Positions 3,573 through 28,902 of a DNA stretch of 28,902 nucleotides are shown here, piece after piece; position 1 is the first letter of the stretch; every line of letters begins with the position of its first letter. The position numbers and the translations under genes were made by a program. The DNA is from a virus: UHGV virus genome UHGV-1442816. One strand, given 5' to 3'. The notes under the pieces were generated by a model. The model searched no databases. It was not told the origin of the DNA and saw nothing but the letters and a program-made list of their open reading frames with translations.

Positions 3573-3580
3573 AAAAACCC

Positions 3581-3608: not shown

Positions 3609-3629
3609 AAATTCATACTTGAAATGAAA

Positions 3630-3950: not shown

Positions 3951-3955
3951 TAATT

Positions 3956-4294: not shown

Positions 4295-4304
4295 GTCCCG
4301 TACC

Positions 4305-5369: not shown

Positions 5370-5371
5370 TT

Positions 5372-5677: not shown

Positions 5678-5678
5678 A

Positions 5679-9151: not shown

Positions 9152-9154
9152 GCG

Positions 9155-9595: not shown

Positions 9596-9605
9596 TTATC
9601 GCTCC

Positions 9606-10766: not shown

Positions 10767-10769
10767 AGT

Positions 10770-12238: not shown

Positions 12239-12642
12239 AGCTGGCGACCGCCCGCACCGAACATCGTGATCAGCTGATAAAATTCAGCGCCATATCGGGT
12301 GTTATTCCAGAAGCCTGCGTCAGGGTTTAGCGTCGCGCTGGTGTCATAGCTGACGCTTACCTTGTCAACGGACTTGGAGGACTGAACACCATTGGTTGAG
12401 CCACCCGGGCCGCCGACGAGCATTGCCCGGCTATCTGCCGCCCAGAGCGTCATGTAGTGAGCCACGAACAACTCGACAAAGTACGGAAACAACTCTTTGC
12501 CGGTGACGTTTTCGCTCAGCAGCACATCAGCCAGATTCAGACGAAACTGGATTTGTGCTTCGGGATATTTGGCAGGGTCAGCAAACTGTGGAAAGTCGCG
12601 CCGAAAATCACTTACTGTTGGCAGGCTTTGATTCTTTGGCAT
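12235..12642 (-). CDS. Head completion / connector protein, unknown function
   Basis: ORF track gives 12235..12741; the first 30-odd codons overlap the upstream gene, so I favour the internal Met at about 12642. Confidence 0.4.
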
Positions 12643-12997
12643 CTTTCGCCCCATTACCGCCAGTCTGGGCGGCAGCAATCTGCGCTTGCAGGCTGTCGTT
12701 CTGCTCTTGCAGCTTGAGCAGCGCTTCTCGCAGATCGGCAATCAGCTGATCTTTATCGATAATCTGCTTATCTTTGTCGGCAATCTGAGCTTGCAGGCTG
12801 TCGATAATGGGTTGCAGATCATCGGTGTCGCTAATCACGCTTTCGGAAAGCTCGGAGTGCGCCTGGGTGAACCAGTGCGACGCGACCTCTTCCGGTACGT
12901 TATGCCGTCCCCGGCCAAACTCCCTTTTTGACTGATCGCCGAGCGTCAGCGTAAACGGGGTGTGAACATGGATGGTAACCAGCTTTTCTTTCGCCAT
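12608..12997 (-). CDS. Structural protein with C-terminal coiled-coil repeats, unknown function
   Basis: 129-aa ORF directly after the capsid gene and a stem-loop; C-terminus has heptad-like Q/D/K/L repeats mirrored by DNA repeats. Confidence 0.45.
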
Positions 12998-13038
12998 TTT
13001 CAGTTCCCTTCTGGCCCCTTTCGGGGCCGTTCTGGTTA

Positions 13039-13398
13039 TCAGATACCGTCCACGTAGGACAGGGTTTCTTTGTACACTGGCTCAACCGCACCGAGCTTGC
13101 CGTAGTAGGTCGCAATCTGATACAGACCGCGATACTGGACAGGAACGCTCTGCAACGGCACCAGCGGATAGCGCACGTATTTCTTGTCGTTGGTGTAGGC
13201 GATCATACGGTCTTTACCGCCAACCCCACGCCCTTTCAGCCATTTGACCGCTTTGATTTCAAGCGGAACGCCGTTCTGGTGGAAAGCGATAGTGTTCACA
13301 GCCAGATAGGTCAGCAGTGACTGGTTACCCGCTTCGGAAACCTTACGGCTCGCCAGCAGTGAATACTGCTCTGGCGGAATGCGCAGATCAGAAGGCAC
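13039..13398 (-). pseudogene. Major capsid protein, C-terminal part, downstream of an in-frame TAG
   Basis: Same frame as 13420..13980 and separated from it only by TAG at 13422..13420 plus seven sense codons. No Shine-Dalgarno sequence before the GTG at 13398. Confidence 0.55.
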
Positions 13399-13419
13399 GA
13401 TGGAATAACCGGATGCTGC

Positions 13420-13980
13420 CTAGGCATTAGACAGAATGCTGTTCACGCTATCGAGGATCTCGTCGTTGGTTGAGTTCGCCCAGGTCTTCGGCGCGTTGTT
13501 CAGCGTCACACCGACGAGGTTTGCCAGACCTTTCAGGCCGAGTGCGTCATCACCGATGTAAACCTGCTCGTCGTTGTCCATCTGCCATTTGAGCTGCATC
13601 CCGTCGTACTTCTGGGTATCAATCGGGCGGCCTACCTGCTGAGCAGCTGCCAGCTCTACAACGGTCCAGCCCAGTTCCATACCCCAGAGGTTCAGTGGAT
13701 TGCCGTCTTTGCTGATATCCACGTTCACGCCAGCAATAGCGGTGGAGTCTTTGCCTACCCAGTTTTTACCATTCGGATTTGCACCAGTACCCGCAGCGGC
13801 GAAGCTGGTATTCGTCCAGCTGGAAATGTCATCTGCGATAGACACGTCTTCACGCAGTTGAATATCTCGGGTCCAGGTGTACCCCACCAGAGGCAGGTTC
13901 AGCGTCTGGTCGAGTCGCTCCAGCTCCCCGATGAGAAAGGCACCAGAGCTATCAACGGTTGCCTGATCAAAAGTAATCAT
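13420..13980 (-). CDS. Major capsid protein, N-terminal part, ending at an in-frame amber codon
   Basis: 186-aa ORF in the position expected for the major capsid gene (after scaffold and a 167-aa head protein). The two parts together give about 313 aa, a typical capsid size. Confidence 0.55.
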   Translation of the reverse strand: MITFDQATVDSSGAFLIGELERLDQTLNLPLVGYTWTRDIQLREDVSIADDISSWTNTSFAAAGTGANPNGKNWVGKDSTAIAGVNVDISKDGNPLNLWGMELGWTVVELAAAQQVGRPIDTQKYDGMQLKWQMDNDEQVYIGDDALGLKGLANLVGVTLNNAPKTWANSTNDEILDSVNSILSNA

Positions 13981-13991
13981 TCGTCTGTTCC

Positions 13992-14495
13992 TTAAATCTT
14001 CCAGGAGATTTCTGCATTGCCGTTAGCGTCACCGGCCCCTGTGAATTCGGCGTTGGTCAGCGCCACGTTTTTGCCACTGACGGACGTGGACATGAAGCCG
14101 CCCAGCGGCACTTTGATGGATTCATCAGTGGAGACGACAACGTATACCGGGTCGCCTTTTTTGATGGTGCTGGCATCAAAATCAGAACCGAGATTAACGG
14201 TCATGTAGCCACGCTTCATGGCGTCACCCGGGAAGTTCTTATCCGTCCCCACCTGGCGAACCATGTCTGGCTGCGATGTGGTCGGATACGGACGAACGTA
14301 GATCCCCTTCACCTTGTCGGCGGTGTCACCGTCCGCCAGCGGCACGAAAAAGCCGTCAGCGTCATATTTGCCAGCCAGACCATAGGCAGCGAAGGCGTTA
14401 GCGGATTTAAGGATCACCGGCTCGACGGTTAAATCCTGCGGGCGAGAGATAGCCCCGGCAATGCCAACAGGCATCCGGTACAAATATGCAGTCAT
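13992..14495 (-). CDS. Head protein (possible decoration or accessory head protein)
   Basis: 167-aa ORF between scaffold/protease and major capsid genes. Confidence 0.45.
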   Translation of the reverse strand: MTAYLYRMPVGIAGAISRPQDLTVEPVILKSANAFAAYGLAGKYDADGFFVPLADGDTADKVKGIYVRPYPTTSQPDMVRQVGTDKNFPGDAMKRGYMTVNLGSDFDASTIKKGDPVYVVVSTDESIKVPLGGFMSTSVSGKNVALTNAEFTGAGDANGNAEISWKI

Positions 14496-14499
14496 TGGA

Positions 14500-15732
14500 T
14501 TATCCTTTGCGGTTAGACCAGAAGTCGGCGTTTTGTTTGTTCAGGGAAGCGATGCTGGTCATGCCCATATTTGGACGTTGTGCATCGCCCGTGGTGCTGC
14601 GGGTGTTTCGCCCTTTGGCAATCTCTGACACGGCGTTAAACGCCATATCTACCGATTGCTTGGGCAATTTGCGGATATCCGCATCACCGACAACCTGGCG
14701 AACCAGTGTTTTGTCAGCGGCAGCCAGCACATCACGTTTGAACGCGGTCGGTTTCACCTTACGGCTCAGATCGATACCCGGGACGATAACCTCGGCACGA
14801 TAGGCAGAGTCACCGGTAATCGTGGTTTCCTCTTCGTCGTCCTCGCCGTCGCCGGTCGGATCTTTTTTGTCTTTTTCGTCAGGCTTATTGTCGTTATCGC
14901 CCGTCGCAGTTCCTTCGAGCTTAGCCAGCAGGGCTTTGAGCAAGGTTTTGATATCGTCCTCGCCGTCGCCGGTTGGATCTCCGCCCATTTCCGGCTTTTT
15001 GTCCGGCAATGGTTGCTGCGGTGAAAGGTTAATGTTGAGGTTAACGCCGCTCGGCAGATCCCCTTCGTCACCCGTTACCGCCGCTGGCGCAGAGTCCAGC
15101 AGTTCGTTCATGGTGTCAGCGTCACCCGTTTTGATGGCCGTGCGCATGCGGGTCCACCAGCTTTTCTTTTGATTTGCCATTGTGTCTCTGTCTCCAATTG
15201 CACAACGATTTCCGGCTCTGCCTTTAGGGACAAGAGCCACATGGTTTCCGGTAATATCGACCTGCTCGGCTTTACCTGGCTCGGTCTGCTCGTACTCCGC
15301 GTCATAGCCGCACGACACTTCGCGCAGACCATCTTCGATAAGCTGAATGGCGCTTTCGTCTTTGACGATAAGGTCTGCCAGCATCAAATCAGACTGGTCA
15401 CCAGTCCCGCGCCGCACATTCTGAAGATGCCCGACAGCAAGCTCTTTCCAGTTCTCGGGATTTACCAGCCGCACATTCCCGTTTTCATCTTCAGGATGCA
15501 GGATCGTGATGCTCATCCCTTCGAATGAGGCGAGCGTGGCCGGATGGAATACCTGCTCAGGAGAACGCGTTACGACTATCTCACCGAGCTTGTCGGGTTT
15601 GAGGTTTGGCAGATCGGCAGCGCCGTAGAGCTGCTTACCCGTTCGACCTATCGGCACGTCTTTACACAACAGCGAGCCGTCAGCCAGCTGATAGCGGGTT
15701 TCCCCCAGCCGGGTATTGAAAAAATATTTCAT
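14500..15732 (-). CDS. Putative prohead protease / scaffold protein (Mu gpI-like)
   Basis: 410-aa ORF after the MuF-like gene; C-terminal half is highly acidic and low-complexity with repeated DPTGDGEDD motifs, typical of scaffolding domains. Confidence 0.5.
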   Translation of the reverse strand: MKYFFNTRLGETRYQLADGSLLCKDVPIGRTGKQLYGAADLPNLKPDKLGEIVVTRSPEQVFHPATLASFEGMSITILHPEDENGNVRLVNPENWKELAVGHLQNVRRGTGDQSDLMLADLIVKDESAIQLIEDGLREVSCGYDAEYEQTEPGKAEQVDITGNHVALVPKGRAGNRCAIGDRDTMANQKKSWWTRMRTAIKTGDADTMNELLDSAPAAVTGDEGDLPSGVNLNINLSPQQPLPDKKPEMGGDPTGDGEDDIKTLLKALLAKLEGTATGDNDNKPDEKDKKDPTGDGEDDEEETTITGDSAYRAEVIVPGIDLSRKVKPTAFKRDVLAAADKTLVRQVVGDADIRKLPKQSVDMAFNAVSEIAKGRNTRSTTGDAQRPNMGMTSIASLNKQNADFWSNRKG

Positions 15733-15746
15733 GGTTTACCTGCGAT

Positions 15747-16520
15747 TCAGGCGAGATAAGAATGAGGGTTGGGGAAGACGATTTCTTTGTAACAGCGGCA
15801 GTTCGGCAGCTCACCAGCGTGACCGGTCATACCGTCAAGCGTTGGAGGTCGGCCCCATTCGACAAACTTACCTTCCATCTCCCGATGAGAATGCCGGACG
15901 TCGCCATCTTCGGCTGTACGCCAGATATAACCATTCGAGCCGATTGACAGCGCACGCGCCTGATCCAGCGCGCCGGTTGCGCGTCCAAGCTCGGTACGGG
16001 CGATAAGGTTCGCTCGTGAGCGTGACACGTCACCGGACGCAGCTATCTCTTTCGCGAATGGCTCAGCGCGGCCACCAGCCACAACGGCCTCGATGGCTTT
16101 GTTCTGAATGTCATACACCCGATCGGCGGCCTCAAGAGGCAGTGACTTGATGTACTTAATTTGCTCGGCGACGATGGATTTCATCACCTGGCCTACCGGG
16201 GCGCGGTCGACCATGTTGCGTAGTTCTGCGCTGATGTTCCGGCTGTGCTGACGCCACTGCTTTTCATTCTGGCGCGCTATGTCTGCGGTGAAGTTCTCAG
16301 CAACCTTCGTCGCCCAGGGGGTGATGATTTCGCTGTAGCGCTCCAGCGCATCCATTATTTCGGTGACGCTATCGTTTGAACCATCGTAGCGCCCATTTAC
16401 GATATCCCCGACCGCCCGCGCTATCTGCCGTAGGCTCGTTCGATATCGGATCTCCGCCTGGCGACTCTGGCGGTTTGTCGCCAAGTTCGCCGATGCCTGG
16501 CGGCGCTTCGTCTTCGGCAT
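15747..16520 (-). CDS. Head morphogenesis protein (Mu F / SPP1 gp7 family)
   Basis: 257-aa ORF immediately after the portal gene; start uncertain because the first ~50 codons overlap the portal 3' end. Confidence 0.6.
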   Translation of the reverse strand: MPKTKRRQASANLATNRQSRQAEIRYRTSLRQIARAVGDIVNGRYDGSNDSVTEIMDALERYSEIITPWATKVAENFTADIARQNEKQWRQHSRNISAELRNMVDRAPVGQVMKSIVAEQIKYIKSLPLEAADRVYDIQNKAIEAVVAGGRAEPFAKEIAASGDVSRSRANLIARTELGRATGALDQARALSIGSNGYIWRTAEDGDVRHSHREMEGKFVEWGRPPTLDGMTGHAGELPNCRCYKEIVFPNPHSYLA

Positions 16521-17838
16521 TCTCGATATCCTCGTCGGTAATGGATGCCCCGATGCCGGTGACGTCAGAGTTTTCGCGCAGGTCGGTCATCGCCGCCTTA
16601 CGCGTCATCAATCCGTCGCCCAGCGCGGTACTGATCGCGTTGGTGGTGTTTACGGCCACCGTTGATCGGTCAACGTCTGACATTTGCCATAGCGGGTTAA
16701 ACTCAAACGTGAAATCGTCCGGCAGCGGCTTACCGAGTTCCGATCGGTGCATAATGTCCAGTATCCGGCGCATCGGCAGCCGTAAGCGGCGCTCCTGCAA
16801 TGAGCTCACCCGGTCGTAATAGTTGGCGAGGTCTGCGTCACCAGTAGAGAAGCCTTTTGGGGACTGACCGAACAGGCGTACCAGCGGGATACCAACGGCA
16901 CCGCTGATCTGCTCAGCGAACTGCGAAAGAATGTCATCCAGACCACTGAAGCTGTACTGGTGGGTTTCGAACTTATCCCGCGAGTCCATGAGCGTCATGC
17001 CTTCATTGCTCTGGAACTGGCGGATCAGGTCGATGTTCTTCAGCAGCGCCTCGAACGCCGGGCCGCCAAGCGCGATAAGCTCTCGCAGCTTCTCCACGCT
17101 GTAGGTGCGCAGATGCGCTTTGTAGACCAACTGAGCCGCGCCGACAGTGGCGCTGTCGAACGCAGTAAGCCGATCCCAGATACGCTCTACAACCGACATT
17201 CCCCATTCGTTTTCGGTCATCTTCTGCTGGAATGGCAGCGTCACCCCGTCGAAGCGGATCAGGCGACTGTGATGGATGCGCCAGGCCGGGATGCCCGTTG
17301 CGGTGGTCACCACGTCGTAAAACTCAGGTTTGCCGAGATCTGGCCCCATCTCTTTAATGCGGCGTGTCAGCACCGGGTTAATCATCCAGCGGTCGAGCGG
17401 GAGAATGCCCTTAAACTTGCCCTCGCCAATGGTTTCGAGTCGCAGCGGGGTCATTGGTGCCTGCCCCTCGATCATGATGAAGCCGACCGCGCCGCCGTAG
17501 AGACGCGACCATTTCAGCACGTCGTTCAGCGCATCCCAGATCTGCAACTCATCCAGTTGCGCTTCGAGGGTGCCACGGTCTTTGGCGTCAATCTCCGAAG
17601 TGATGCGAATGCCTTTACGGGTCATGTCGTCCGGGATAGCGTCGACCGCTTCGCCGATAACCCACGAACCGCGATATGACCATTCCACCAGCATGCGGTT
17701 GCGGCTGGTGGAGTTCGCCCGGTAGGTTGATGCTGAATGCTGGTTAGGCGTCTGCATCCCCACGCGGGCGAAAAAGTTCTCATAGCCATCAGCGGTGGCC
17801 TGTGCCGTTCGCTGAGAGGATTGCTTGTTTCGTGCCAT
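16369..17838 (-). CDS. Portal protein
   Basis: About 490 aa; I place the start at the Met whose ATG overlaps the terminase stop (TGATG) rather than the upstream Met of the ORF-track call 16369..17865. Position directly after the large terminase. Confidence 0.75.
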   Translation of the reverse strand: MARNKQSSQRTAQATADGYENFFARVGMQTPNQHSASTYRANSTSRNRMLVEWSYRGSWVIGEAVDAIPDDMTRKGIRITSEIDAKDRGTLEAQLDELQIWDALNDVLKWSRLYGGAVGFIMIEGQAPMTPLRLETIGEGKFKGILPLDRWMINPVLTRRIKEMGPDLGKPEFYDVVTTATGIPAWRIHHSRLIRFDGVTLPFQQKMTENEWGMSVVERIWDRLTAFDSATVGAAQLVYKAHLRTYSVEKLRELIALGGPAFEALLKNIDLIRQFQSNEGMTLMDSRDKFETHQYSFSGLDDILSQFAEQISGAVGIPLVRLFGQSPKGFSTGDADLANYYDRVSSLQERRLRLPMRRILDIMHRSELGKPLPDDFTFEFNPLWQMSDVDRSTVAVNTTNAISTALGDGLMTRKAAMTDLRENSDVTGIGASITDEDIENAEDEAPPGIGELGDKPPESPGGDPISNEPTADSAGGRGYRKWALRWFKR

Positions 17839-19283
17839 CAGGCTTGCCTCCCGAGCAATTCCCAAATATCCATTGTTGTATCGGTCGGCGCGAACGCCAT
17901 TATGAAAGCGTCGGCAATGTTAGGTGAGGGGATATCGCGCTTAGCCAAATCTTTCTTGCTTTCAACCATAACCCTACCGTTACGATCAAAGTCTCGGTGC
18001 GGGGTCGTCAGCTCAAGCTTTAGTTTCTCCAGGTGCGGGCACGATGAATCGATACTTATCAACTCATCAACAGGATATTCCTCTCCATTTTTCACCGCGT
18101 TGAACGTATTACGAAAGCGATCAGCTACCAGCCACCATGCCTGGGCTTTCAGATTGGCAAAGAAGTCTTTATTCGGAATGCCGTTATATTCAGAATCTGG
18201 CTCGTTCACACCAGCGCCAGCATTGAAGCGTTGATAATTAACTGGTCGTGAATAAGGATTTTCACGTCGTCTGTCTTCGTTAATTTCCGAGAATTTAGCA
18301 CCAGCAGAAGCGCCAACACCAATGGAGTCATAAACGATATCAGCACTTCTCTCTGTGGCTGCCTGATATGCCCGCTGGCAGCTTTTAAGAAGCTCGTCTT
18401 CTTTTGCCTTCCATTCATCAGCCCAATACACAACGGAGCCATGACGATAAACATTGGAGCACTTATCCGCACCGCTATCGGCAACGTCGAAGCCTATTCG
18501 CTTTCGTCCGTTTGGCTCAAAACCAAGCACCTTATGGGCATCTATTGCAGCCTCAATCCACGAAAGTTTAATAATTGCCGCGTCATCATCAGATTCGGGA
18601 ACCCCCATATAAACGTGGTCAAACCCCTCCGGATCACGACGCTTTGCAGCCGAGATAACCTTAAGCATGGTGTCTGAGAGGAATGGGTTTTCGTCGTAAT
18701 TGATTTTTCGCACCAACGTATCTTCTGGTGGATCAACAACGAAATTACGCCATACAAAGTCAGTCACCAGACCAGGGTTAAAAATAAACCAGCATTCAGA
18801 TCCGCTTTTACGAATGGTTGGTTCCAGTATCTTCCACTGGTATTCCGTTAGTGCATGGGCTTCTTCAAGCCACAAAACGCTGATACCTTCCAGGGATTTA
18901 ATTTCTTCGATATTGCGCCATAAACCGTAAAACACGAATTCTGAGCCAGTGACCCGGTTGATAATTTTATTATTCAGAATTCGGAAGCGATGCCGCAGCC
19001 CAAACCGTTCAATCTGTATTTTGAGCAGGGTATAAACCGACTCTTCGATTTTGTTCTGAATTTGACGTGCGCAACAGAAACGCAGGTTGTATTTATTTGC
19101 CAGAAAGACAGCAAACCCAGCAGCATCCCATGACTTTGACGATGAGCGCCCACCAAAAAGTACTTTATTTCGAGCCTGTGTCGTCCAGAAGTTCCTTAGG
19201 GCCGGATTCAGGGTCGGTTTGGATGTCAGAGTAGAAGTCATTAAGGTCACGATCTCCATTACCGTCATCAACGCCAGCATCAC
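17838..19283 (-). CDS. Terminase large subunit
   Basis: 481-aa ORF with Walker A-like GGRSSSKS near the N-terminus; size and position. True start may be an internal Met near 19241. Confidence 0.8.
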   Translation of the reverse strand: MMLALMTVMEIVTLMTSTLTSKPTLNPALRNFWTTQARNKVLFGGRSSSKSWDAAGFAVFLANKYNLRFCCARQIQNKIEESVYTLLKIQIERFGLRHRFRILNNKIINRVTGSEFVFYGLWRNIEEIKSLEGISVLWLEEAHALTEYQWKILEPTIRKSGSECWFIFNPGLVTDFVWRNFVVDPPEDTLVRKINYDENPFLSDTMLKVISAAKRRDPEGFDHVYMGVPESDDDAAIIKLSWIEAAIDAHKVLGFEPNGRKRIGFDVADSGADKCSNVYRHGSVVYWADEWKAKEDELLKSCQRAYQAATERSADIVYDSIGVGASAGAKFSEINEDRRRENPYSRPVNYQRFNAGAGVNEPDSEYNGIPNKDFFANLKAQAWWLVADRFRNTFNAVKNGEEYPVDELISIDSSCPHLEKLKLELTTPHRDFDRNGRVMVESKKDLAKRDIPSPNIADAFIMAFAPTDTTMDIWELLGRQA

Positions 19284-20698: not shown

Positions 20699-21158
20699 TT
20701 ACCACCCCACCTGCCTCTTTAAACCGGGAAATCAGGTCACTGATTTTATGTTCATACTGACCGTAACCTGCACCGGGTAACGACGCCCAGATATTGCTGC
20801 AACGGTCGATAGCCTGACGAATATCACCGCGATCAATCATCGGCAAAGCGCCACGTTCCTTAATCTGCTGCAATGCCACAGCGTCCTGGCTTTTCGGAGA
20901 GAAATCTTTCAGGCCAAGTTGCTTACGGTAGGCATCCCACCAACGGGAAAGAAGCTGGTAACGTCCGGCTGCTGTTGATTTGAGTTTTGGGTTTAGCGTG
21001 ACAAGTTTGCGAGGGTGATCTGAGTAATCAGTGAATAGCTCTCCGCCAACAATGACGTCATAACCATGATTTCTGGTTTTCTGTCGTCCGTTATCTGTTC
21101 CCTCTGACCACGCCAGCATATCTAGGAACGCCTTACGTTGATTATTGATTTCCACCAT
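20682..21158 (-). CDS. R: Endolysin, lambda R-type lytic transglycosylase
   Basis: 158-aa translation [49 protein letters not shown]... matches lambda R over most of its length by my recollection, diverging at the C-terminus. Confidence 0.9.
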
Positions 21159-21465
21159 CTTCTACTCCGGCTTTTTTAGCAGCGAAGCGTTTGATAAGCG
21201 AACCAATCGAGTCAGTACCGATGTAGCCGATGAACACGCTCGTTATATAAGCGAGATTGCTACTTAGTCCGGCGAAGTCGAGAAGGTCACGAATGAACCA
21301 GGCGATAATGGCGCACATCGTTGCGTCGATTACTGTTTTTGTAAACGCACCACCATTATATCTGCCGCGAAGGTACGCCATTGCAAACGCAAGGATTGCC
21401 CCGATGCCTTGTTCCTTTGCCGCGAGAATGGCGGCTAACAGGTCATTTTTTTCTGGCATCTTCAT
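21142..21465 (-). CDS. S: Holin, lambda S-type, with dual-start motif
   Basis: 107-aa translation [39 protein letters not shown]... is near-identical to lambda S by recollection; Met1-Lys2-Met3 dual start is retained. Confidence 0.9.
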
Positions 21466-21860
21466 GTCTTACCCCCAATAAGGGGACTTGCTCTATTTAA
21501 TTAGGAATAAGGTCGATTACTGATAGAACAAATCCAGGCTACTGTGTTTAGTAATCAGATTTGTTCGTGACCGATATGCACGGGCAAAACGGCAGGAGGT
21601 TGTTAGCGCAACCTCATGCCGCCCGCTTTCACGAAGATCATGTGTAGAAGGCCGCAGCGTAACTATCACTGATGAATTCAGGATAGCCAGTGGCTACGGC
21701 TCAGTTTGGGTCGTGCTGTTGCTGGGCGGCGATGACGCCTGTACGCATTTGGTGATCCGGTTCTGCTTCCGGTACTCGCTTAATTCAGCACAACGGAAAG
21801 AGCACTCAATGCATTTAAGCCAAGCCCCATAAGGGAGAATGCTCTTACCTGTTGCACAGA

Positions 21861-21923
21861 TATAAAAAATCCCGAAACCGTTATGCAGGCTCTAACTATT
21901 ACCTGCGAACTGTTTCGGGATTG
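21861..21923 (-). terminator. tR' intrinsic terminator (end of 6S RNA)
   Basis: Minus strand reads AATCCCGAAACAGTTCGCAGGTAATAGTTAGAGCCTGCATAACGGTTTCGGGATTTTTTATA: long hairpin plus U-tract, matching my recollection of lambda tR'. Confidence 0.75.
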
Positions 21924-22056
21924 CATTTTGCAGACCTCTCAGCCTGCGATGGTTGGAGTTCCAGACGATACGTCGAAGTGACCAACTAGGCGGAATCGGT
22001 AGTAAGCGCCGCCTCTTTTCATCTCACTACCACAACGAGCGAATTAACCCATCGTT
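21864..22056 (-). ncRNA. 6S RNA-like late leader transcript (pR' to tR'), about 190 nt
   Basis: Interval between the predicted pR' start site and the tR' U-tract; no ORF. Sequence closely matches my recollection of the lambda pR' leader. Confidence 0.6.
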
Positions 22057-22062
22057 GGGTCA

Positions 22063-22091
22063 AATTTACCCAACTTTATTCAAAAAGTCAA
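22063..22091 (-). promoter_or_regulatory. Late promoter pR' (-35 TTGACT, 17-bp spacer, -10 TAAATT) with adjacent qut region
   Basis: Minus strand TTGACTTTTTGAATAAAGTTGGGTAAATT at 22091..22063, immediately downstream of the Q stop. Confidence 0.75.
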
Positions 22092-22133
22092 TATTATGCC
22101 GTTAATATGTTGCCATCCGTGGCAATCATGCTG

Positions 22134-22757
22134 TTAACGTGTGACCGCATTCAAAATGTTGTCTGCGATTGACTCTTCTTTGTGGCATTGCACCACCAGA
22201 GCGTCATACAGCGGCTTAACAGTGCGTGACCAGGTTGGTTGGGTAAGGTTGGGTATTAGCATCGTCACAGCGCGATATGCGGCGCTTGCTGGCATTCTTG
22301 AATAGCCGACACCTTTGCATCTTCCGCATTCTTTCTCAACAACTCTCCCCCACAGCTCTGTTTTTGATATATCAACCGCACGGCCTGTACCGTGGCAATC
22401 TCTGCACCTTGCTCCCGGCGTCGCGGCACTACGGCAATAATCCGCATAAGCGAATGTTGCGAGCACTTGCAGTACCTTTGCCTTAGTATTTCCTTCAAGC
22501 TTTGCCACGCCACGGTATTTCCCCGATACCTTGTGTGCAAATTGCATCAGATAGTTGATAGCCTTTTGTTTGTCGTTCTGGCTGAGTTCGTGCTTACCGC
22601 AGAATGCAGCCATACCGAATCCGGCTTGTGATTGCGCCATCCCCATAGCAGCCATCACATCAGTACCGGAAAGAGAGTCAGAAGCCGTGGCCCGTGGTGA
22701 GTCGCTCATCATCGGGCTTTTTGGCGAATGAAATTTAGCTACGCTTTCGAGTCTCAT
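22134..22757 (-). CDS. Q: Late gene antiterminator Q (lambda Q-type)
   Basis: 207-aa translation matches my recollection of lambda Q along its length, including the Cys-rich zinc-binding region (CRDCHGTGR...CGRCKGVG). Confidence 0.9.
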   Translation of the reverse strand: MRLESVAKFHSPKSPMMSDSPRATASDSLSGTDVMAAMGMAQSQAGFGMAAFCGKHELSQNDKQKAINYLMQFAHKVSGKYRGVAKLEGNTKAKVLQVLATFAYADYCRSAATPGARCRDCHGTGRAVDISKTELWGRVVEKECGRCKGVGYSRMPASAAYRAVTMLIPNLTQPTWSRTVKPLYDALVVQCHKEESIADNILNAVTR

Positions 22758-22942
22758 GGCCTTCCCCTTTTTCCCTGTTTGACCATCAGGACGCCGTTAA
22801 CTATTACGTGACGCTCGCCTTTACTGTCTCGGTTGTACTTGAGCACTGTTCCTCTTGCGTAGGAAAGCATCCTTGCCACTTCGGTCTGATTGCCTCGTGT
22901 CTGGATAAGAAGCTCTGGTATCGTTTGAATTGTGGCGTTCAT
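22754..22942 (-). CDS. ninH: NinH-like small DNA-binding protein
   Basis: 62-aa ORF with TIPELLIQTRGNQTEVARML...RGTVLKY resembling lambda NinH; ATGA overlap with Q start. Confidence 0.7.
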   Translation of the reverse strand: MNATIQTIPELLIQTRGNQTEVARMLSYARGTVLKYNRDSKGERHVIVNGVLMVKQGKRGRP

Positions 22943-23301
22943 ACGTTCTCCAGTTCGGTGATTTTTATTCCAAGCCGTCCGCCTGGTACTTTCACACCAC
23001 GAATTACGCGAATGTCATCGAATTGCTCGTCGTCTTCCGCAAATCCGGCGTGGATAAGGGAGTCGAGTAAACCTTTCAGGATGTTGTCGAGGTCGCGGCG
23101 GCGGGAATCTGGAACGTCTGCGATGACTTTGATGCGGAGTCGTGATTTGGTGAAAATGTCTAACTTGAGTTGGCGAATGATTTGCTGAACGTCTTTTCGG
23201 TATTTCTGGCCTTTATCGCTGATGTAGTATTGGCTTTCCCGTCTTCGCCAGTAGGTGTTCACCGACGGCGGGTACGGAAGCACAAACTGATATTCGTTCA
23301 T
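22939..23301 (-). CDS. rusA: RusA-type Holliday junction resolvase
   Basis: 120-aa ORF with LPYPPSVNTYWRRR..., DVPDSRRRDLDNILKGLLDSL and GGRLGIKITE, matching RusA signature regions. Confidence 0.85.
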   Translation of the reverse strand: MNEYQFVLPYPPSVNTYWRRRESQYYISDKGQKYRKDVQQIIRQLKLDIFTKSRLRIKVIADVPDSRRRDLDNILKGLLDSLIHAGFAEDDEQFDDIRVIRGVKVPGGRLGIKITELENV

Positions 23302-23576
23302 TGGACAAACACCCTCCCATTGTTAACCAATTTTTTAAGGGTAAGCACAATGGCCCGATCCATTTCAGCCCTTCGCTCTTCCCTGCTCATATCTCTCCCA
23401 TTATCAATTCTTGAATGACAATCAACACATAGCGCAGCAGTAAGGCAATCATCTACTTTAATCCCAACCCCCTTCCCTTCATTTCTGTGAGCGGCCTGAA
23501 CTCCGTATCTTCCGCAAAGAACGCAAAATTCAATATCCCTGACTGCCTGAAGCCATTTTTTGCTTCTAAACATCAA
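23298..23576 (-). CDS. Small Cys/His-rich nin-region protein (DUF1364 / YbcO-like, putative nuclease)
   Basis: 92-aa ORF with CVLCG...H...C...CVDCH pattern; located just upstream of rusA as in other lambdoid prophages. Confidence 0.45.
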   Translation of the reverse strand: MMFRSKKWLQAVRDIEFCVLCGRYGVQAAHRNEGKGVGIKVDDCLTAALCVDCHSRIDNGRDMSREERRAEMDRAIVLTLKKLVNNGRVFVQ

Positions 23577-24075
23577 TCCCCTCCAAAAAACGTCGGTACG
23601 CTGATTTGTTTTTTATGTTGCACACTGTCTGCGCACAAACACCAAATTCTTTGGCTATATCTCTGTATTTGCCTTTTGATTTATATATTGATTTCACTTG
23701 TTCTGGCGTTAGTTTGCAGAAGTGATGATTAAACCCATGAACAAGCAATCCGGAATCAAATCCATGTTTCGCATTTTCTGTTCGCGTTACCCACTCAAGA
23801 TTTTCAACTTTATTATTAAGTTTATTTCCATCCTTGTGATTAACTTCCGGTTTGCCATCTGGGTTATCAATAAATACTTCTGCAACAATTCTGTGAACCA
23901 TTTTATATGATGGTCTTTTCCCGCCACCTGGATACAGACCGACAAATGCATATCCTCCTGGTTTAATGCCATGAGATAATTTTTTTGATTTACGGCATGA
24001 AATGATGTCTCCATTTTCAGTTACTTTATATATACCCTCAAAGCCGGGGATATCTTTTTCTTTAACATCACTCAT
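23566..24075 (-). CDS. HNH homing-endonuclease-like protein (NUMOD4 plus HNH_3-like)
   Basis: 169-aa ORF with N-terminal GFEGIYKVTENGDIIS, central VNHKDGNKLNNKVENLEWVTRTEN (HNH core) and a C-terminal helix-turn-helix-like segment; conspicuously AT-rich. Confidence 0.75.
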   Translation of the reverse strand: MSDVKEKDIPGFEGIYKVTENGDIISCRKSKKLSHGIKPGGYAFVGLYPGGGKRPSYKMVHRIVAEVFIDNPDGKPEVNHKDGNKLNNKVENLEWVTRTENAKHGFDSGLLVHGFNHHFCKLTPEQVKSIYKSKGKYRDIAKEFGVCAQTVCNIKNKSAYRRFLEGIDV

Positions 24076-24244
24076 CGTCTTCTTCCTCGTACATTGAGCT
24101 ATTCGGATCGCTCATCAGTTCTGCGCAGCAATCTGAGCACACGTGAACTTCCAGCACATGCAGCTTCTGACCGCAGTTAGCGCACGTTAAAGCCCGCTCG
24201 ACGCTTTCTTTCTGGTATTGAAGGGATTGGGATGGGCTAAGCAT
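24068..24244 (-). CDS. ninF: NinF
   Basis: Below ORF-track size cutoff. Translation MLSPSQSLQYQKESVERALTCANCGQKLHVLEVHVCSDCCAELMSDPNSSMYEEEDDE matches my recollection of lambda NinF. Confidence 0.7.
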   Translation of the reverse strand: MLSPSQSLQYQKESVERALTCANCGQKLHVLEVHVCSDCCAELMSDPNSSMYEEEDDE

Positions 24245-24651
24245 TATTGGCGTCCTGCATCATGAGAAAGACAATCATGGCGGCGCGTAGTGGATTAGAC
24301 TGATGCTGAATTCCGAACTTTTGACAAGATGAAATCGCATCACACCACTCGTGATATTCGCCTTCATATCTCGTATCGGTACTATCAAACATTATGCTGA
24401 TTTTGTTTTCAGTGATAATTGGCCATGCGTCTTCAGGATTATTGCAAGGATTGAAGCAATTTCCGTTTGAAGCACGGAAGCCATTAATATCCCTTTTTTG
24501 CGTCTGCCAAATAGGACCTCTTTCGTCAGTGGGGATCTCAGAATCGAAATCTGCTTCGTCATCAGGTATGAAGAAATGCTCCTCCATATCTAAAGCCTCA
24601 CATACTCGCTTGTTAATTTCAAAATCACTTAACTGTGAATAATCCATTGTC
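24237..24651 (-). CDS. Nin-region protein (possibly NinX-like), unknown function
   Basis: ORF track gives 24237..24689; I favour the Met whose ATG overlaps the ninE stop (ATGA), giving [14 protein letters not shown]... (138 aa). Sits between ninE and ninF. Confidence 0.45.
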
Positions 24652-24826
24652 ATTTCCTCGCACGATGTCTTAGCCACCGGATATCCCACAGGTGAGCCGT
24701 GTAGTTGAAGGTTTTTACGTCAGATTCTTTTGGGATTGGCTTGGGTTTATTTCTGGAGCGTTTCGTTGGAAGGTATTTGCAGTTTTCACAGATTATGTCG
24801 GTGATACTTCGTCGCTGTCTCGCCAT
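24650..24826 (-). CDS. ninE: NinE
   Basis: Below size cutoff. Translation [58 protein letters not shown], with AGGAGG Shine-Dalgarno upstream; matches my recollection of lambda NinE. Confidence 0.7.
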
Positions 24827-24966
24827 ACGTCCTCCTTTTCCTGCGGTAGTGGTAAAACTCCTGTTGGTGTTCTTTCACACCGGAGACACCATCGATTCCA
24901 GTAAGGTTGATTTGGTCTGAAGCGGTTATCTTCTTTGCATTCACCGCACCGATCACATCGCATCAT
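24793..24966 (-). CDS. ninD: NinD (zinc-ribbon-like)
   Basis: 57 aa from the Met whose ATG overlaps the ninB stop: [34 protein letters not shown]... Overlaps ninE by 34 nt as I recall for lambda ninD/ninE. Confidence 0.6.
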
Positions 24967-25403
24967 GCTGCCCGGTCTCCCCATCGCGCTTTCCATTCGA
25001 GAGCCAGTCGCGCTTCGTCTGACCACTTAACGCCACGCTCTGTACCGAATGCCTGTATAAGCTCTAATAGCTCCGCAAATTCGCTTACACGCATCCTGCT
25101 GGTTGACTGGCCTATTACCACAAAGCCATTCCCGGCAAGGTTAGGAACAACATCCTGCTGCTTTAATGCTGCGGTAAACACACACTTCCAGCTTTCTGCA
25201 TCCAGCCAGCGACCATGCCATTCAACCTGACGAGAGACGTCACCAAGGCAAGCCCAAAGCTTTCGGTTCTGGTCTAAGCTGCGGTTGCGTTCCTGAATGG
25301 TTACTACGATTGGTTTGGTTGGGTCTGGAAGAATTTGCTGTATCGCGTGAATAGCGTTTTGTTGATGAATGGGGCTTCTTAGTTCAAACGTTAGCTTCCT
25401 CAT
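24963..25403 (-). CDS. ninB: NinB (Orf-family recombination mediator)
   Basis: 146-aa translation is near-identical to lambda NinB by recollection (...[56 protein letters not shown]...). Confidence 0.9.
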
Positions 25404-25638
25404 TGCTCACCTTCTGCACGCATGGATTAATTAACGCCAAAATAGCTTCTGGTTTCTCAATAACATCGAACCGCTCACCACTTGTCATTCTTACAATCGT
25501 AATCCCGGCCTCAAATAGGGTTTCGATGTTGTCAGAGTTAACGTACAAGGGCTCATATGCACTTCTGGTGCTTTCTATCACGCCTGTGCTTGGTGGCTGA
25601 TAGATGCTGCATTGCATGGTTAATTTTATAAATGGCAT
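25384..25638 (-). CDS. Hypothetical protein in the position of lambda ren
   Basis: 84-aa ORF between helicase-side accessory genes and ninB; no lambda Ren similarity. Confidence 0.4.
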   Translation of the reverse strand: MPFIKLTMQCSIYQPPSTGVIESTRSAYEPLYVNSDNIETLFEAGITIVRMTSGERFDVIEKPEAILALINPCVQKVSNEEANV

Positions 25639-25642
25639 ATAC

Positions 25643-25963
25643 TCACTCCTTCACTTTGATTCCAGCAGCGCGGATGTTTTCCTCATAAGCATCCATTGCA
25701 TCACCGAAGCCATTGGAATAATCAACAGTAAACCCTTTGGCTAATGCTTCTCTGCTGTCGATAAACTTTGGCGCGGTTATTTCAATAGCTGATCGCGATG
25801 CCTGCCACGTTTGCCAGTGGCCTTGAACATCGTCCATCACGTATTGACCACCAATATTACCACTGCCAATTTCATGGTGATTTTCAGGGTAACGGATAAG
25901 GTCTGAGGATTCGCCTCCACGTCGCAACCAACTTTCTTCAAACTGCCTTCTTGATTCGTCCAT
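25643..25963 (-). CDS. Hypothetical protein
   Basis: 106-aa ORF, tightly packed with neighbours. Confidence 0.4.
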   Translation of the reverse strand: MDESRRQFEESWLRRGGESSDLIRYPENHHEIGSGNIGGQYVMDDVQGHWQTWQASRSAIEITAPKFIDSREALAKGFTVDYSNGFGDAMDAYEENIRAAGIKVKE

Positions 25964-25980
25964 CGGTACTTACCCTCAGT

Positions 25981-26187
25981 TCAACTCAAAAAACGCCACG
26001 CCATTTTTGCTACAGCGACAGGCATAACACCGATAATCACCCAGACAAATGCAGCGCCAAACAACGTATACCATGGGTCTTTACCGTCATTCACAAGACG
26101 AATGTAGCCATGCAGAACAATAAAAAACGTCAGAAGAATCCATCCAACGCCGACGCATTTGAGTGCGACGAGCATAAACTCAACCAC
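25981..26187 (-). CDS. Small membrane protein with two predicted transmembrane helices
   Basis: 68-aa ORF starting at GTG; hydrophobic stretches VALKCVGVGWILLTFFIVL and FGAAFVWVIIGVMPVAVA. Confidence 0.45.
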   Translation of the reverse strand: MVEFMLVALKCVGVGWILLTFFIVLHGYIRLVNDGKDPWYTLFGAAFVWVIIGVMPVAVAKMAWRFLS

Positions 26188-26263
26188 GATTTACTCTCCC
26201 CCAAATAAAAAGGCCTGCGATTACCAGCAGGCCTGTTACAAGCTCAGTGATGTAGATGGTCAT
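26180..26263 (-). CDS. 27-aa hydrophobic peptide, translationally coupled to helicase
   Basis: Not in ORF track. ATG overlaps helicase stop (TGATG) with AAGGAGG 7 nt upstream; product MTIYITELVTGLLVIAGLFIWGRVNRG is one transmembrane helix; its stop overlaps the start of the 68-aa gene. Confidence 0.35.
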   Translation of the reverse strand: MTIYITELVTGLLVIAGLFIWGRVNRG

Positions 26264-27714
26264 CAGAATCCTCCTTTCTTCTTGGACTGCGGTTCCTCGC
26301 GTTCACGTCGGCGCATTTCAGCAGACTGTTGGTCTGTGTCATAAATAGCGCCATTTGCCTGAATGCAATACACCGTGCCGGTATTGCCATGACGATTGAG
26401 ACGAAGGATTAGTTCGGTTTCACCAGGTGGAACACTGTCATCAAAAGCGCCTTCACGATGGATCCCAACCCAATAATCGCAATCCTGTTCAATCTGCCCT
26501 GTATCGCGCGAGTCACTTGGTAATGGGCGTTTATTGGTTCGGCTTTCCAATGCGCGGTTAAGCTGTGTCAGAAGCACAACAACGCAATCAAGCTCTTTGG
26601 CAAGGTTCTTCAATCCTTTGGTGATCATGCCGTAAGCAAGGTCGTTGCGATCGGCCTTCTCAGCAGTCATTAGTGTCAGGTAATCGACCAGAATCATGCC
26701 AACGCATCCTTTTTCTCGCTTGATTCGACGGCTTTCGCTGACGATTTGAGCCAGAGATAATCCCGGCGTGTCGTCGATGTAAAGCAGGTCGATTTCACTC
26801 AAGCGATTGGCTGTTTCGATCGCCCTGTTGAAGTCACCATCGTAATCACCCTGATAGCCGTCATCAGCGTCATTTGTCGCCGGAAGGTAAAAAATATTCG
26901 GGTTAACACCTGACTTCTGTCCTACCAGTTTTTCCAGTATCTGGTCACCTGGCATTTCAAGGCTGAACATCAGAGCGGGCTTTTTCTCATGCACCGCACA
27001 GTTGATTGCCATCTGGCTGTATAGCGTCGTTTTCCCCATCTTAGGGCGAGCGCCAATGACGAACAGAGAGCCTTTCACCAGACCTTTCGGTGACAGCATC
27101 CTGTCCAGCGATGGGATCCCTGTGCTCATTCCCCGTTGTTCGCCTGATGGGTCAAATCGTTTCTCAAGGTCGCTAACCCAGTCTTCCATAACCTCACCAA
27201 ATGAGCGAAGGCCGCGACGCGATCCGGTTTTTGCATGGTCTGTCAGTTGCGTGAAAATCGCCTGAATAGCTTCGTACTTCTGCGTCGCAGTCATTCCGTT
27301 GCGGGAATAGAGCAATTCCGTCGCTTCAGTCATGCGGTTGATGGCGTAGCGTTCCATTGCGGTTTCGCGAACCTGCATTGCATAGGCAACGATGTTTGCG
27401 GCGCTTGGCGTGTTCTTTGCGATCTCAGTGATATAAGCAAAACCGCCAACAGACGCCGTTAACGATTTACGCTCCAGTTCATCGAAAAGCGTCAGGCCAT
27501 CTACTGGCTTTTGCTCCCGGTGCATTCTGGTTATTTCTTCGAAAATGATTTTGTGTGGTCGGCTGTAAAATGAATCAGGCTTCAGCATCGCCAGAACTTT
27601 CTGGACGCGCTCACTGCTGTCATCATCCAGAAGCAATCCACCAATCACCGCCTGCTCTGCCTCGATGCTATGGGGCGGCGCATAAAAATTATCGGTCATC
27701 GTGTTCACCCTCAC
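26263..27714 (-). CDS. Replicative DNA helicase, DnaB family (P22 gp12-like)
   Basis: 483-aa ORF with N-terminal AEQAVIGGLLLDDD (DnaB N-domain-like) and Walker A GARPKMGKTT. Confidence 0.85.
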   Translation of the reverse strand: MRVNTMTDNFYAPPHSIEAEQAVIGGLLLDDDSSERVQKVLAMLKPDSFYSRPHKIIFEEITRMHREQKPVDGLTLFDELERKSLTASVGGFAYITEIAKNTPSAANIVAYAMQVRETAMERYAINRMTEATELLYSRNGMTATQKYEAIQAIFTQLTDHAKTGSRRGLRSFGEVMEDWVSDLEKRFDPSGEQRGMSTGIPSLDRMLSPKGLVKGSLFVIGARPKMGKTTLYSQMAINCAVHEKKPALMFSLEMPGDQILEKLVGQKSGVNPNIFYLPATNDADDGYQGDYDGDFNRAIETANRLSEIDLLYIDDTPGLSLAQIVSESRRIKREKGCVGMILVDYLTLMTAEKADRNDLAYGMITKGLKNLAKELDCVVVLLTQLNRALESRTNKRPLPSDSRDTGQIEQDCDYWVGIHREGAFDDSVPPGETELILRLNRHGNTGTVYCIQANGAIYDTDQQSAEMRRREREEPQSKKKGGF

Positions 27715-28579
27715 GAACTTTCAGGTAGGTATTATCGTTAAGCAGGAAATCAAATCCCTTTTTGTGCCAGACGGTTCCGCGTTGATGGTTTTGGCGCTCT
27801 TCGAACATCCATCGGCAATTTTCGCCTACGTAGCTCAAATAATTTCTCCAGTCCTGCATCGTGAACCCATGCCCGTCAAGCTGGCGGGTTATCACTCCGG
27901 CTTTGCGCCAGAACGTTCGGATCTGGTTTTTACGCTTGTCATTCAGTGCGCGGATTTTTGGCGCTTCAGGAAGGATTTCGTGGTAAGCATCGACAACATC
28001 CTGACAGCTAACGGAAGGTTTTTTCTTGTCAGACTTTTTGTCTGCTGCGGTACTCTCTAATACGTCAGTATTAGAGATATTATTTATATTATTGTTTATG
28101 GACAACCGTTGGACAACCGTTGGACAATCTCCGCTGAGAGCCGCGCCATTACTGGTGTTTGCGTTGGACAACCGTTGGACAACCGTTGGACAATTTTTTG
28201 CCTGAAAATCGTCATATTTAACGATTGTAAACAGGCTAAATTTCTTCCCCATCGAGCAAATATTAAGCATCCCTTTCGACTCAAAAGTCCGTAATAAGCT
28301 CCGAACTTTGTTGTCGGGGATGAATGTTTCTCTGACCAGCGACGGGCGTCCAGTTATCATCTGACCGCGATCAACAGTTATCGGCCCGATATCCGTATTG
28401 ACGACAGTAGATTCGTGATTAGCCTTGAGGATTAAGTGAAGCCAAAGATGTACTGCCTGAGAGTCCTTATAGAGCCTGCTGTCCATAAACTGGCGGTGTA
28501 TAGAGACATACCCCATACTGGATGCCTCCTGATGTTGTACAGGGTTATGCCTGTAATCAGCTAACTTAACGACGCCCAT
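27689..28579 (-). CDS. Replication initiator, O-like, with origin iterons inside the coding sequence
   Basis: 296-aa ORF directly upstream of the helicase gene; mid-gene iteron clusters encode the repeated peptide CPTVVQRLS. Confidence 0.75.
   Translation of the reverse strand: MGVVKLADYRHNPVQHQEASSMGYVSIHRQFMDSRLYKDSQAVHLWLHLILKANHESTVVNTDIGPITVDRGQMITGRPSLVRETFIPDNKVRSLLRTFESKGMLNICSMGKKFSLFTIVKYDDFQAKNCPTVVQRLSNANTSNGAALSGDCPTVVQRLSINNNINNISNTDVLESTAADKKSDKKKPSVSCQDVVDAYHEILPEAPKIRALNDKRKNQIRTFWRKAGVITRQLDGHGFTMQDWRNYLSYVGENCRWMFEERQNHQRGTVWHKKGFDFLLNDNTYLKVREGEHDDR
28099..28195. repeat. Replication origin iterons: two clusters of TGGACAACCGT repeats
   Basis: TGGACAACCGT at 28099, 28110, 28165 and 28176, each pair followed by a partial copy (TGGACAAT); 35-bp spacer; AT-rich tracts on both sides (28040..28098 and 28191..28245). 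Confidence 0.7.
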
Positions 28580-28727
28580 GTTTCACTCCTGCTTTGGCTA
28601 GTCTGTAAACACCAACAAGGCGCTCTGCGAACGCCCTGTTATTTGCTGCGGCTACCACTAATCCCTCAGGTGAATCAGGGTGTCGAATCTCTTCTTTTTC
28701 CTGGTATTTCTTACGACGTTTTGTCAT
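28569..28727 (-). CDS. Small basic protein between cII and O, unknown function
   Basis: Not in ORF track. ATG at 28727 preceded by AGGAG 5 nt upstream; product MTKRRKKYQEKEEIRHPDSPEGLVVAAANNRAFAERLVGVYRLAKAGVKHGRR (52 aa); stop overlaps the O start. Confidence 0.4.
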
Positions 28728-28736
28728 AATGACTCC

Positions 28737-28815
28737 TGTGGATTGATCCAGTAATGACCTCAGAATTGCATATCAATTTGCTTAAAATCCTCGGTGGCGG
28801 CCGGGGATTTTTTCT
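28737..28815 (+). ncRNA. oop-like antisense RNA overlapping the cII 3' end (putative)
   Basis: Plus-strand hairpin AAAATCCTCGG-TGGCGGC-CCGGGGATTTT followed by TTCTTTGT at 28784..28820 lies antisense to the cII 3' end, as for lambda oop. A possible -10 CATAAT at 28725..28730 would give a ~77-nt transcript. Confidence 0.4.
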
Positions 28816-28902
28816 TTGTGATTTCATCAAGCGCATACTTAAAAGCCCTGCTAATCGGACTGATGTCTGATGCCATTCCTAAAGCACACAAGACCGAAGC
28901 AA
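28760..28902 (-). CDS. cII: CII-like transcriptional activator, C-terminal 47 codons (5' partial)
   Basis: Minus-strand ORF entering from beyond the window end and stopping at TGA 28762..28760; C-terminus ...ITKKKSPAATEDFKQIDMQF resembles lambda CII ...NKKRPAATERSEQIQMEF. Confidence 0.65.
   Translation of the reverse strand, partial: ASVLCALGMASDISPISRAFKYALDEITKKKSPAATEDFKQIDMQF

Follow-up and report, generated by a model that had tools for sequence, protein, structure and literature searches.

A candidate free-standing homing endonuclease of the I-HmuI type beside a DUF1364-like gene in lambdoid nin regions

What is an AT-rich nuclease gene doing inside the recombination-gene block of a lambdoid phage? 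The question is posed by UHGV virus genome UHGV-1442816, analysed here as one stretch of 28,902 nucleotides (nt; the window), in which an HNH open reading frame (ORF) lies between ninF and a DUF1364-like gene that we call D91. We consider it probable that this ORF encodes a free-standing homing endonuclease of the I-HmuI type, which is copied by repair together with the linked D91 gene. Protein domains, fold, rarity, base composition and site fidelity jointly argue for homing. The first-pass annotation, made from the sequence alone, had already proposed a free-standing homing endonuclease; the gene is indeed free-standing, with neither intron nor intein around it, and homing is supported indirectly.

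The gene and its predicted protein

The HNH gene and the parts of its product map as follows.

23566..24075, minus strand: I-HmuI-like HNH endonuclease coding sequence with NUMOD4, HNH_3 and helix-turn-helix (HTH) parts (ORF list, Pfam, PHROG, Protein Data Bank (PDB), structural model)
23932..24057, minus strand: NUMOD4 N-terminal beta-sheet DNA-binding domain, residues 7-48 (Pfam PF07463, E 1e-6)
23770..23904, minus strand: HNH_3 beta-beta-alpha-metal core, residues 58-102 (Pfam PF13392, E 6e-11)
23569..23712, minus strand: C-terminal helical DNA-binding domain with HTH, residues 122-169 (AlphaFold2 model, Foldseek)

The ORF begins with ATG, encodes 169 residues and holds the motif NHKDGNKLNNKVENLEWVTRTEN; the ORF list agrees with the first-pass annotation on its coordinates, length and motif. 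Its GC content is 0.367, and 0.276 at third codon positions (GC3), against 0.515 for the whole window and 0.42-0.51 for the neighbouring genes, so that the contrast in AT-richness noted at first is real. It is the most AT-rich 510-nt stretch of the 28.9 kb (fraction of 510-nt windows at or below its value, 0.0004), and its base composition is foreign to its surroundings. The GC content of D91 is also lowered (0.437, GC3 0.387, over 23298-23576), with rusA and ninF at about 0.50.

The gene is free-standing: it has a start and a stop codon of its own, lies between the stop of ninF and the start of D91, and no intron or intein context was found. An Rfam scan of the window gave no family at gathering score and no group I or group II intron, there are no tRNAs, and an intron-encoded or RNA-associated gene was rejected on these grounds. 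A transposon-like insertion was likewise rejected, as no notable flanking direct or inverted (terminal) repeats are present at the gene. Promoter-like sites around the gene do not exceed their frequency in shuffled sequence, and no terminators were found there.

By profile and by modelled fold, the predicted protein is a member of the I-HmuI/HNH_3 branch of the His-Me-finger homing endonucleases (PMC5714182). NUMOD4 (29.2 bits against a cut-off of 23.4) and HNH_3 (42.2 against 24.8) both exceed their curated Pfam thresholds, in agreement with the NUMOD4-like N-terminus and HNH core first proposed. The protein also matches PHROG 59 'HNH endonuclease' (E 8e-51) and the PADLOC 'homing endonuclease' (HEase) models (E 1e-24); no NCBIfam model is matched by it or by D91. 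Its sole solved sequence relative is I-HmuI (PDB 1U3E, E 9e-19, residues 6-121). An AlphaFold2 model built from 49 homologues has a predicted local distance difference test score (pLDDT) of 94.3, and its top and sole significant PDB match in Foldseek is again I-HmuI (1u3e, E 4.5e-10, 164 aligned columns). Pfam, the I-HmuI match and Foldseek therefore all support an HNH_3 fold. In the model, the NUMOD4 region contains strands at residues 6-8, 16-19, 24-26 and 43-47, and the core comprises strands 77-80 and 93-96 and helix 98-108. Three C-terminal helices follow (124-132, 137-144 and 148-155), the last two of which form the HTH that the first reading had placed there. This HTH gives only a sub-threshold Pfam match (CENP-B_N, 139-157) and weaker Foldseek matches to the HTH of Tc3 transposase, sigma-4 and resolvase.

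The likeness to I-HmuI, from the DNA-polymerase intron of Bacillus phage SPO1, extends to length (169 versus 174 residues) and to a three-part layout in which the N-terminal NUMOD4 beta-sheet, the HNH core and the C-terminal HTH form one extended monomer. Overall identity is about 29%, and I-HmuI differs in being encoded inside a group I intron and in nicking one strand at the intron insertion site, whereas the window gene is free-standing. The catalytic residues of I-HmuI are D74, H75 and N96 (PMC12724721). They align with N79-H80 (23836-23841) and N101 (23773-23775), so that H75 and N96 are kept as H80 and N101, and Asp74 is replaced by Asn79. N79, H80, N92 and N101 are invariant in the alignment of 49 homologues. 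Because the N-H pair, with Asn at the Asp74 position, occurs in 110 of 120 homologues, the alignments mark this Asn as a conserved trait of the branch and not a lesion; Asn79 is plausibly a metal ligand.

A rare gene with one address

The immediate surroundings of the gene are listed here in the direction of transcription.

24068-24244, minus strand: ninF, 5' neighbour of the HNH gene, with break-points at 24090-24296 that differ between HNH-carrying loci (Pfam NinF, E 8e-14)
24067..24075, minus strand: left (5') mosaic junction ATGAGTGAT, overlap of the HNH start and ninF stop (alignment, blastn break-points)
23566..23573, minus strand: right (3') junction ATGTTTAG, overlap of the HNH stop and D91 start (alignment, blastn)
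23298-23573 (or to 23576), minus strand: D91, a 91-residue DUF968/DUF1364(YbcO)-like gene, 3' neighbour (PHROG 131, E 6e-31; weak Pfam DUF968/YbcO)
22939-23301, minus strand: rusA, 3' of D91 (Pfam RusA, E 2e-16)

The HNH ATG (24073-24075) overlaps the ninF TGA (24068-24070) as ATGAGTGA, an overlap that the first-pass annotation had read correctly, and the HNH TAG (23566-23568) overlaps the D91 ATG (23571-23573) as ATGTTTAG. The gene thus lies between ninF and the DUF1364-like gene, as had been stated. The accompanying remark that lambda carries ninG roughly there needs a nuance: in this phage type the ninG slot is taken by a DUF1364 and rusA pair, and the HNH gene lies 5' of that pair.

The gene is rare. 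Identical DNA was found in 2 of 50,697 phage records, those of the P22-like phages Louie and Dewey, at the same position. Among 5426 complete Escherichia coli genomes, the gene occurs at 36 places in 34 genomes and ninF of this type at 2118 places in 1695, so that less than 2% of comparable nin regions carry the HNH gene. Neither these counts nor the GC content fit a gene that is universal in related phages and native in composition, the alternative that the first-pass annotation had set against its own proposal. In RefSeq, identical proteins go under the name 'NUMOD4 motif-containing HNH endonuclease'. Identity drops to at most 43% in the next-best phage proteins, and outside E. coli the HNH core finds its closest DNA-level matches in lactococcal and enterococcal phage genes. 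Relatives at 53-75% identity were found by database search in E. coli, Salmonella, Klebsiella aerogenes, Citrobacter koseri and Superficieibacter.

The address is nearly constant. A D91 homologue of 91 residues lies directly 3' of the HNH gene, with the same 8-nt stop/start overlap, in eight of the nine lineages examined. The 5' neighbours of the HNH gene vary by lineage (ninF, an 81- or 100-residue hypothetical gene, a DNA methylase or DUF1367), and so do the 3' neighbours of D91 (RusA or Q-type antiterminators). The HNH clade nearly always keeps one position, 5' of D91, while the outer neighbours change. We call the DUF1364 subtype to which D91 belongs the 'W' subtype (M[FY]RS.KWL...); beside HNH genes its start reads ATG-T[TA]x-AGA, or M-[FY]-R-S. 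The DUF968/DUF1364 (YbcO) family is classified as His-Me finger (PMC5714182); D91 falls below the Pfam thresholds for DUF968 and YbcO and is labelled 'hypothetical protein' in RefSeq. Two loci, L011 and L012, share HNH genes that are 98% identical in nucleotide sequence and D91 genes that are 95% identical, with unrelated DNA on both sides. They fit a history in which HNH and D91 moved as a cassette between unrelated flanks. Deeper relatives (about 50-55% identity) adjoin YbcO-family genes in the orders NinB-HNH-YbcO (metagenome) and YbcO-HNH-RusA (Aggregatibacter), and in the relative P0046 the HNH gene is downstream of a YbcO gene. A relative at 42% identity has an unrelated gene context.

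We compared 134 D91 loci collected from IMG/VR, GTDB species representatives and earlier searches, a sample biased to window-like sequences. Directly 5' of D91 the HNH gene is present in 33, present in a deleted form in two and absent from 99, which is a presence/absence polymorphism at one defined site. HNH-less D91 genes start at least two codons further upstream (M-A-I-Y-R-S...). HNH carriers are polyphyletic and scattered over the D91 tree, and for four of five HNH-carrying groups the closest D91 allele has no HNH gene beside it (for the window, 98.9% versus 74.7% identity). The Superficieibacter HNH (locus L114) groups with E. coli types in 964 of 1000 bootstraps, a grouping recovered in 0 of 1000 for D91; its D91 groups instead with Salmonella and Klebsiella types (1000/1000). 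Similarly, Salmonella HNH proteins are 69-72% identical to HNHs whose D91 partners match Salmonella D91 at 93-95%. These discordant genealogies suggest that HNH moved relative to D91, in support of homing. An obligate HNH-D91 pair was ruled out, as each gene is found without the other.

Intact and decayed copies coexist. Ten near-identical HNH alleles contain 11 synonymous and 3 non-synonymous polymorphic sites, a ratio that indicates purifying selection on the protein, and none of 19 full-length copies has an internal stop. Two loci, in E. coli AH19B041 (L010) and in the IMG/VR prophage IMGVR_UViG_2663763227_000001 (L025), share an in-frame 330-nt deletion (window 23585-23914) that removes the HNH core and HTH. 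The product is a 59-residue NUMOD4-only ORF in which the overlaps with ninF and D91 are both retained, so that translational coupling of D91 would be preserved and the nuclease lost. Frameshifted or partial HNH proteins also occur in the protein database (P0028, P0013 and P0042). Such decayed copies are as expected in the homing-endonuclease life cycle and lend it support here. In each of E. coli E10 (NZ_CM143887.1) and ET729 (NZ_CP100927.1), both the HNH gene and the D91 allele are present twice, which could reflect transfer between co-resident prophages.

Boundaries, stubs and rival explanations

Where does the foreign segment begin and end? In phages 683R2, mEp235, ECP1 and phiv205-1, ninF and rusA are 96-99% identical to those of the window, and HNH and D91 are replaced by a 70- or 89-residue hypothetical gene and a 'type 2' DUF1364, a subtype only 27% identical to D91. 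Similarity to these alternative-slot phages on the ninF side stops exactly after ATGAGTGAT, the same nine bases with which each alternative slot gene starts, and blastn break-points show similarity to the HNH-less type-2 phages resuming at rusA. Across other genomes, the slot between ninF and DUF1364 holds the 70- and 89-residue hypothetical genes or roi, with ninG further on. On the other side, the window's D91 allele is present in 37 E. coli genomes, 34 of which have the HNH gene 5' of it. In the remaining three (RM8082, DETEC-S565 and NCTC9104) D91 is directly 3' of a different ninF allele, and identity with the window resumes 1-2 nt past the HNH stop codon. By these comparisons the foreign segment appears to be almost exactly the ORF itself, about 23566-24066. 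In the same three genomes (L007-L009, locus positions 1760-1782) this other ninF allele and the D91 start overlap by 23 nt. A 23-nt stretch, AAATGGCTTCAGGCAGTCAGGGA, lies just inside D91, is conserved in HNH-carrying and HNH-less alleles, and looks like the recombination break-point.

The alignments of nin regions proposed at first pass thus define the boundaries of the segment; they did not yield an empty site with shared flanks, or a target site. That other genes occupy the slot agrees with the earlier notion of an insertion into the ninF/DUF1364 block. The simple picture of insertion beside a resident DUF1364 gene needs revision, because a plain empty site between the same two flanks is found in no relative.

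A trace of past movement may be preserved at the 5' end of some relatives. In six lineages (L011-13, L014-16, L018-19, L040 and L114) the HNH ORF opens with about 15 codons, MANLRKEARGRECQV and variants, which match the 5' end of type-2 DUF1364 in both protein and DNA. Unrelated DNA begins right upstream of the stub ATG. The stub is absent in the window and in L017, and its differences between lineages are mostly synonymous. Its positions within the loci are as follows.

L011, 4001-4045: stub
L012, 4001-4045: stub
L040, 1972-2016: stub
L114, 1465-1509: stub
L014 and L018: stub, more diverged

The presence of the stub shows, as far as sequence comparison can, that recombination of the cassette once took place within a type-2 DUF1364 gene, and the stub may be a former cleavage and repair junction or a homology arm. 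A more specific version, which we put forward tentatively and think rather unlikely as it stands, is that the mobile unit consists of the HNH gene plus a divergent, cleavage-immune D91. This unit would overwrite a type-2 DUF1364 gene cut near codon 15, with the stub as scar or left arm, and in the window lineage the cassette would have gained a new anchor, the 3' end of ninF. If this allele replacement is true, the homing element supplies, for the gene that it targets, a substitute of the same function.

Several observations weigh against homing, whichever version is preferred. Among 160 loci, none is a clean empty site in which both immediate flanks are shared and HNH is missing: the HNH-less D91 alleles are overlapped at their start by another ninF allele, and the phages with both the ninF and rusA flanks carry the other DUF1364 subtype. 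Because no pair of insert and empty site shares both flanks, ordinary shuffling of lambdoid modules could give the same pattern. HNH-carrying and nearest HNH-less alleles show no co-conversion gradient in D91 beyond the first four codons. The relative P0021 (59% identity) has no D91 and lies 5' of a RecA-dependent nuclease gene. The metal ligand Asp74 of I-HmuI is Asn79 here, and its compatibility with catalysis is an assumption. The bias of the D91 sample counts on the same side, and in the literature we found no experiments, biochemical or genetic, on cleavage or homing by this protein or its close relatives.

An alternative is that the gene no longer homes and is passive cargo, neutral or mildly useful, in an HNH-D91(-rusA-ninH) block shuffled by ordinary homologous or boundary recombination. 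Many alternative genes occupy the ninF-DUF1364 slot, ATGAGTGAT is common to unrelated slot genes as at a generic mosaic boundary, and no clean empty site was found. Moreover, break-points on the ninF side vary among HNH-carrying loci (24090-24836), with the block 22753-24090 always co-inherited. We nevertheless think this explanation unlikely. A gene without activity is hard to reconcile with the 11:3 excess of synonymous sites and with catalytic residues invariant in 49 homologues, and shuffling leaves unexplained both the same position and D91 overlap in five genera with changing neighbours and the discordance of the HNH and D91 trees at a fixed junction.

A different proposal takes the D91 link as functional. 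HNH and D91 might cooperate, for instance as a nickase and a structure-specific nuclease feeding NinB/RusA or as a nuclease and its partner or regulator, to the benefit of phage replication or recombination rather than as a selfish element. The 8-nt overlap in eight of nine lineages, with the translational coupling that it implies, the broadly correlated divergence of the two genes and the location inside a recombination-gene block (NinB, RusA) would all suit such a module. Its improbability comes from how freely the partners separate: 99 of 134 D91 loci have no HNH, among them the allele 98.9% identical to that of the window; HNH occurs without D91 (P0021) or 3' of a YbcO gene (P0046); at least two prophages keep D91 despite deletion of the HNH core; and the two genealogies are discordant.

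Packaging HNH genes sit beside terminase genes. Here some 4 kb and a lysis cassette separate the terminase region from the HNH gene, which lies in the early operon. HNH proteins of the packaging-helper kind (HK97 gp74 or Skunavirus 'HrdP' type) are common in phages and prophages (PMC12724721), and PADLOC has models that match the HNH protein, but either a packaging role or a part in prophage anti-phage defence is highly improbable: the Pfam families are HNH_3 and NUMOD4 of the I-HmuI branch and not PF01844, the matched PADLOC models are labelled 'homing endonuclease', D91 matches no defence model, and a gene without a promoter above chance would, if dependent on pR, be silent in a repressed prophage. 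We accordingly rejected a terminase-associated packaging HNH, on position (between ninF and rusA) and family, and a defence system, for which PADLOC gave only homing-endonuclease models for HNH and none for D91.

Homing in a lambdoid setting

Under the homing reading, the gene would be expressed as part of the early-right (pR) operon, with its translation coupled to that of ninF. The HNH protein would then be made in lytic growth or on induction, while the phage replicates alongside relatives. The protein would bind a long asymmetric site at or near the DUF1364 locus in HNH-less lambdoid DNA and nick or cut it. Recombinational repair, by phage Orf/NinB-RusA or host functions, would then copy HNH together with the linked and presumably uncut D91. 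The homology arms would here be the conserved ninF 3' end and rusA; more generally, one arm would be ninF or the stub and the opposite arm D91 or rusA. The predicted outcome is super-Mendelian spread of the HNH-D91 cassette; the same spread seen from the other phage is marker exclusion. The role in phage-phage competition that the first-pass annotation had offered as an alternative would, in our analysis, be this one mechanism viewed from the other side.

Intronless homing has precedents. In phage T4, MobE, SegF and SegG break the DNA of an endonuclease-less relative, and repair spreads the gene with its flanking markers; the adjacent allele of the carrier is resistant to cleavage. The window gene resembles these in being set between conserved genes. 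It differs in family, T4 MobE being of another HNH branch and the Seg enzymes GIY-YIG, and in setting, T-even phages being virulent with recombination-dependent replication; T4 activity was shown by experiment, whereas here activity is proposed from comparative evidence.

A closer parallel in enzyme type is found in the lactococcal Skunavirus phages. Their I-HmuI-like HNH genes are free-standing, variable in number and presence and often truncated, each phylogenetic cluster has a single insertion location, mostly in the replication or early module, and some cause marker exclusion (PMC12724721). The window gene and its relatives are likewise free-standing, sporadic, accompanied by decayed copies and tied as a clade to one location. 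The Skunavirus hosts are Gram-positive and the phages virulent siphoviruses, their enzymes keep D74, and no DUF1364 link has been described for them. In the P22-like lambdoid Salmonella phage epsilon34, gene 31 fuses the N-terminus of eaE in frame to an HNH endonuclease with Gram-positive-phage affinity (PMC2629481). Its anatomy is that of the DUF1364-stub::HNH fusions among the relatives of the window gene. It lies in the early-left operon, however, its endonuclease is a different one, and the window copy has no stub.

That the gene encodes an HNH endonuclease was already known, since RefSeq names it correctly, and its kind is common among phages. What is new is the fixed address of the clade beside one DUF1364/YbcO subtype, that of D91. 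We found no description in the literature of an HNH homing endonuclease at the ninF/DUF1364 position, and the genome announcement of Louie and Dewey leaves the HNH gene unmentioned. Work on homing endonucleases has concentrated on T-even and Gram-positive phages and has hardly touched lambdoid phages, in which mosaicism is usually ascribed to passive recombination at gene boundaries. A clade fixed at the DUF1364/YbcO-RusA locus in Enterobacteriaceae, and apparently Pasteurellaceae, would actively drive exchange of the nin region. Louie and Dewey, which have the gene in identical form and can be grown on E. coli K-12, would offer a concrete and cheap experimental system. The clade also provides a handle on the DUF1364/YbcO His-Me-finger proteins, a family without assigned function.

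The remaining genes of the region follow the lambdoid early-right order NinB, NinE, NinX, NinF, HNH, D91, RusA, NinH, Q, all on the minus strand.

24963-25403, minus strand: NinB
24650-24826, minus strand: NinE
within 24237-24689, minus strand: NinX
22754-22942, minus strand: NinH
22134-22757, minus strand: Q

The window is itself a mosaic. Its structural module (598-17867) shares 96% identity with Citrobacter phage Omnitron and about 79% with Hafnia phage yong1, whose record is annotated as baseplate-bearing (myovirus-like), and its nin/replication region (21000-28900) matches P22-like and lambda-like E. coli phages. Since Louie and Dewey, which carry the identical HNH gene, are podoviruses, the early module with HNH has been exchanged across virion types.

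In two IMG/VR prophages (L035, at 1239-1961, and L036) a 240-residue Roi/antirepressor-like gene lies between ninF and HNH, and a repeat of about 29 nt from the 3' end of ninF (window 24062-24090) flanks it on both sides. The HNH protein starts there with MDD and not MSD. The repeat resembles a boundary sequence that has served again, as a linker for recombination. Further endonuclease genes are present at other places in these early regions: L012 has a second HNH_3 gene (2996-3544) between ninB and the slot gene, and in E. coli AH19B041 an 'HNH endonuclease signature motif' gene (L010, 1-247) lies just downstream of Q. Lambdoid early regions may thus host several endonuclease insertion sites.

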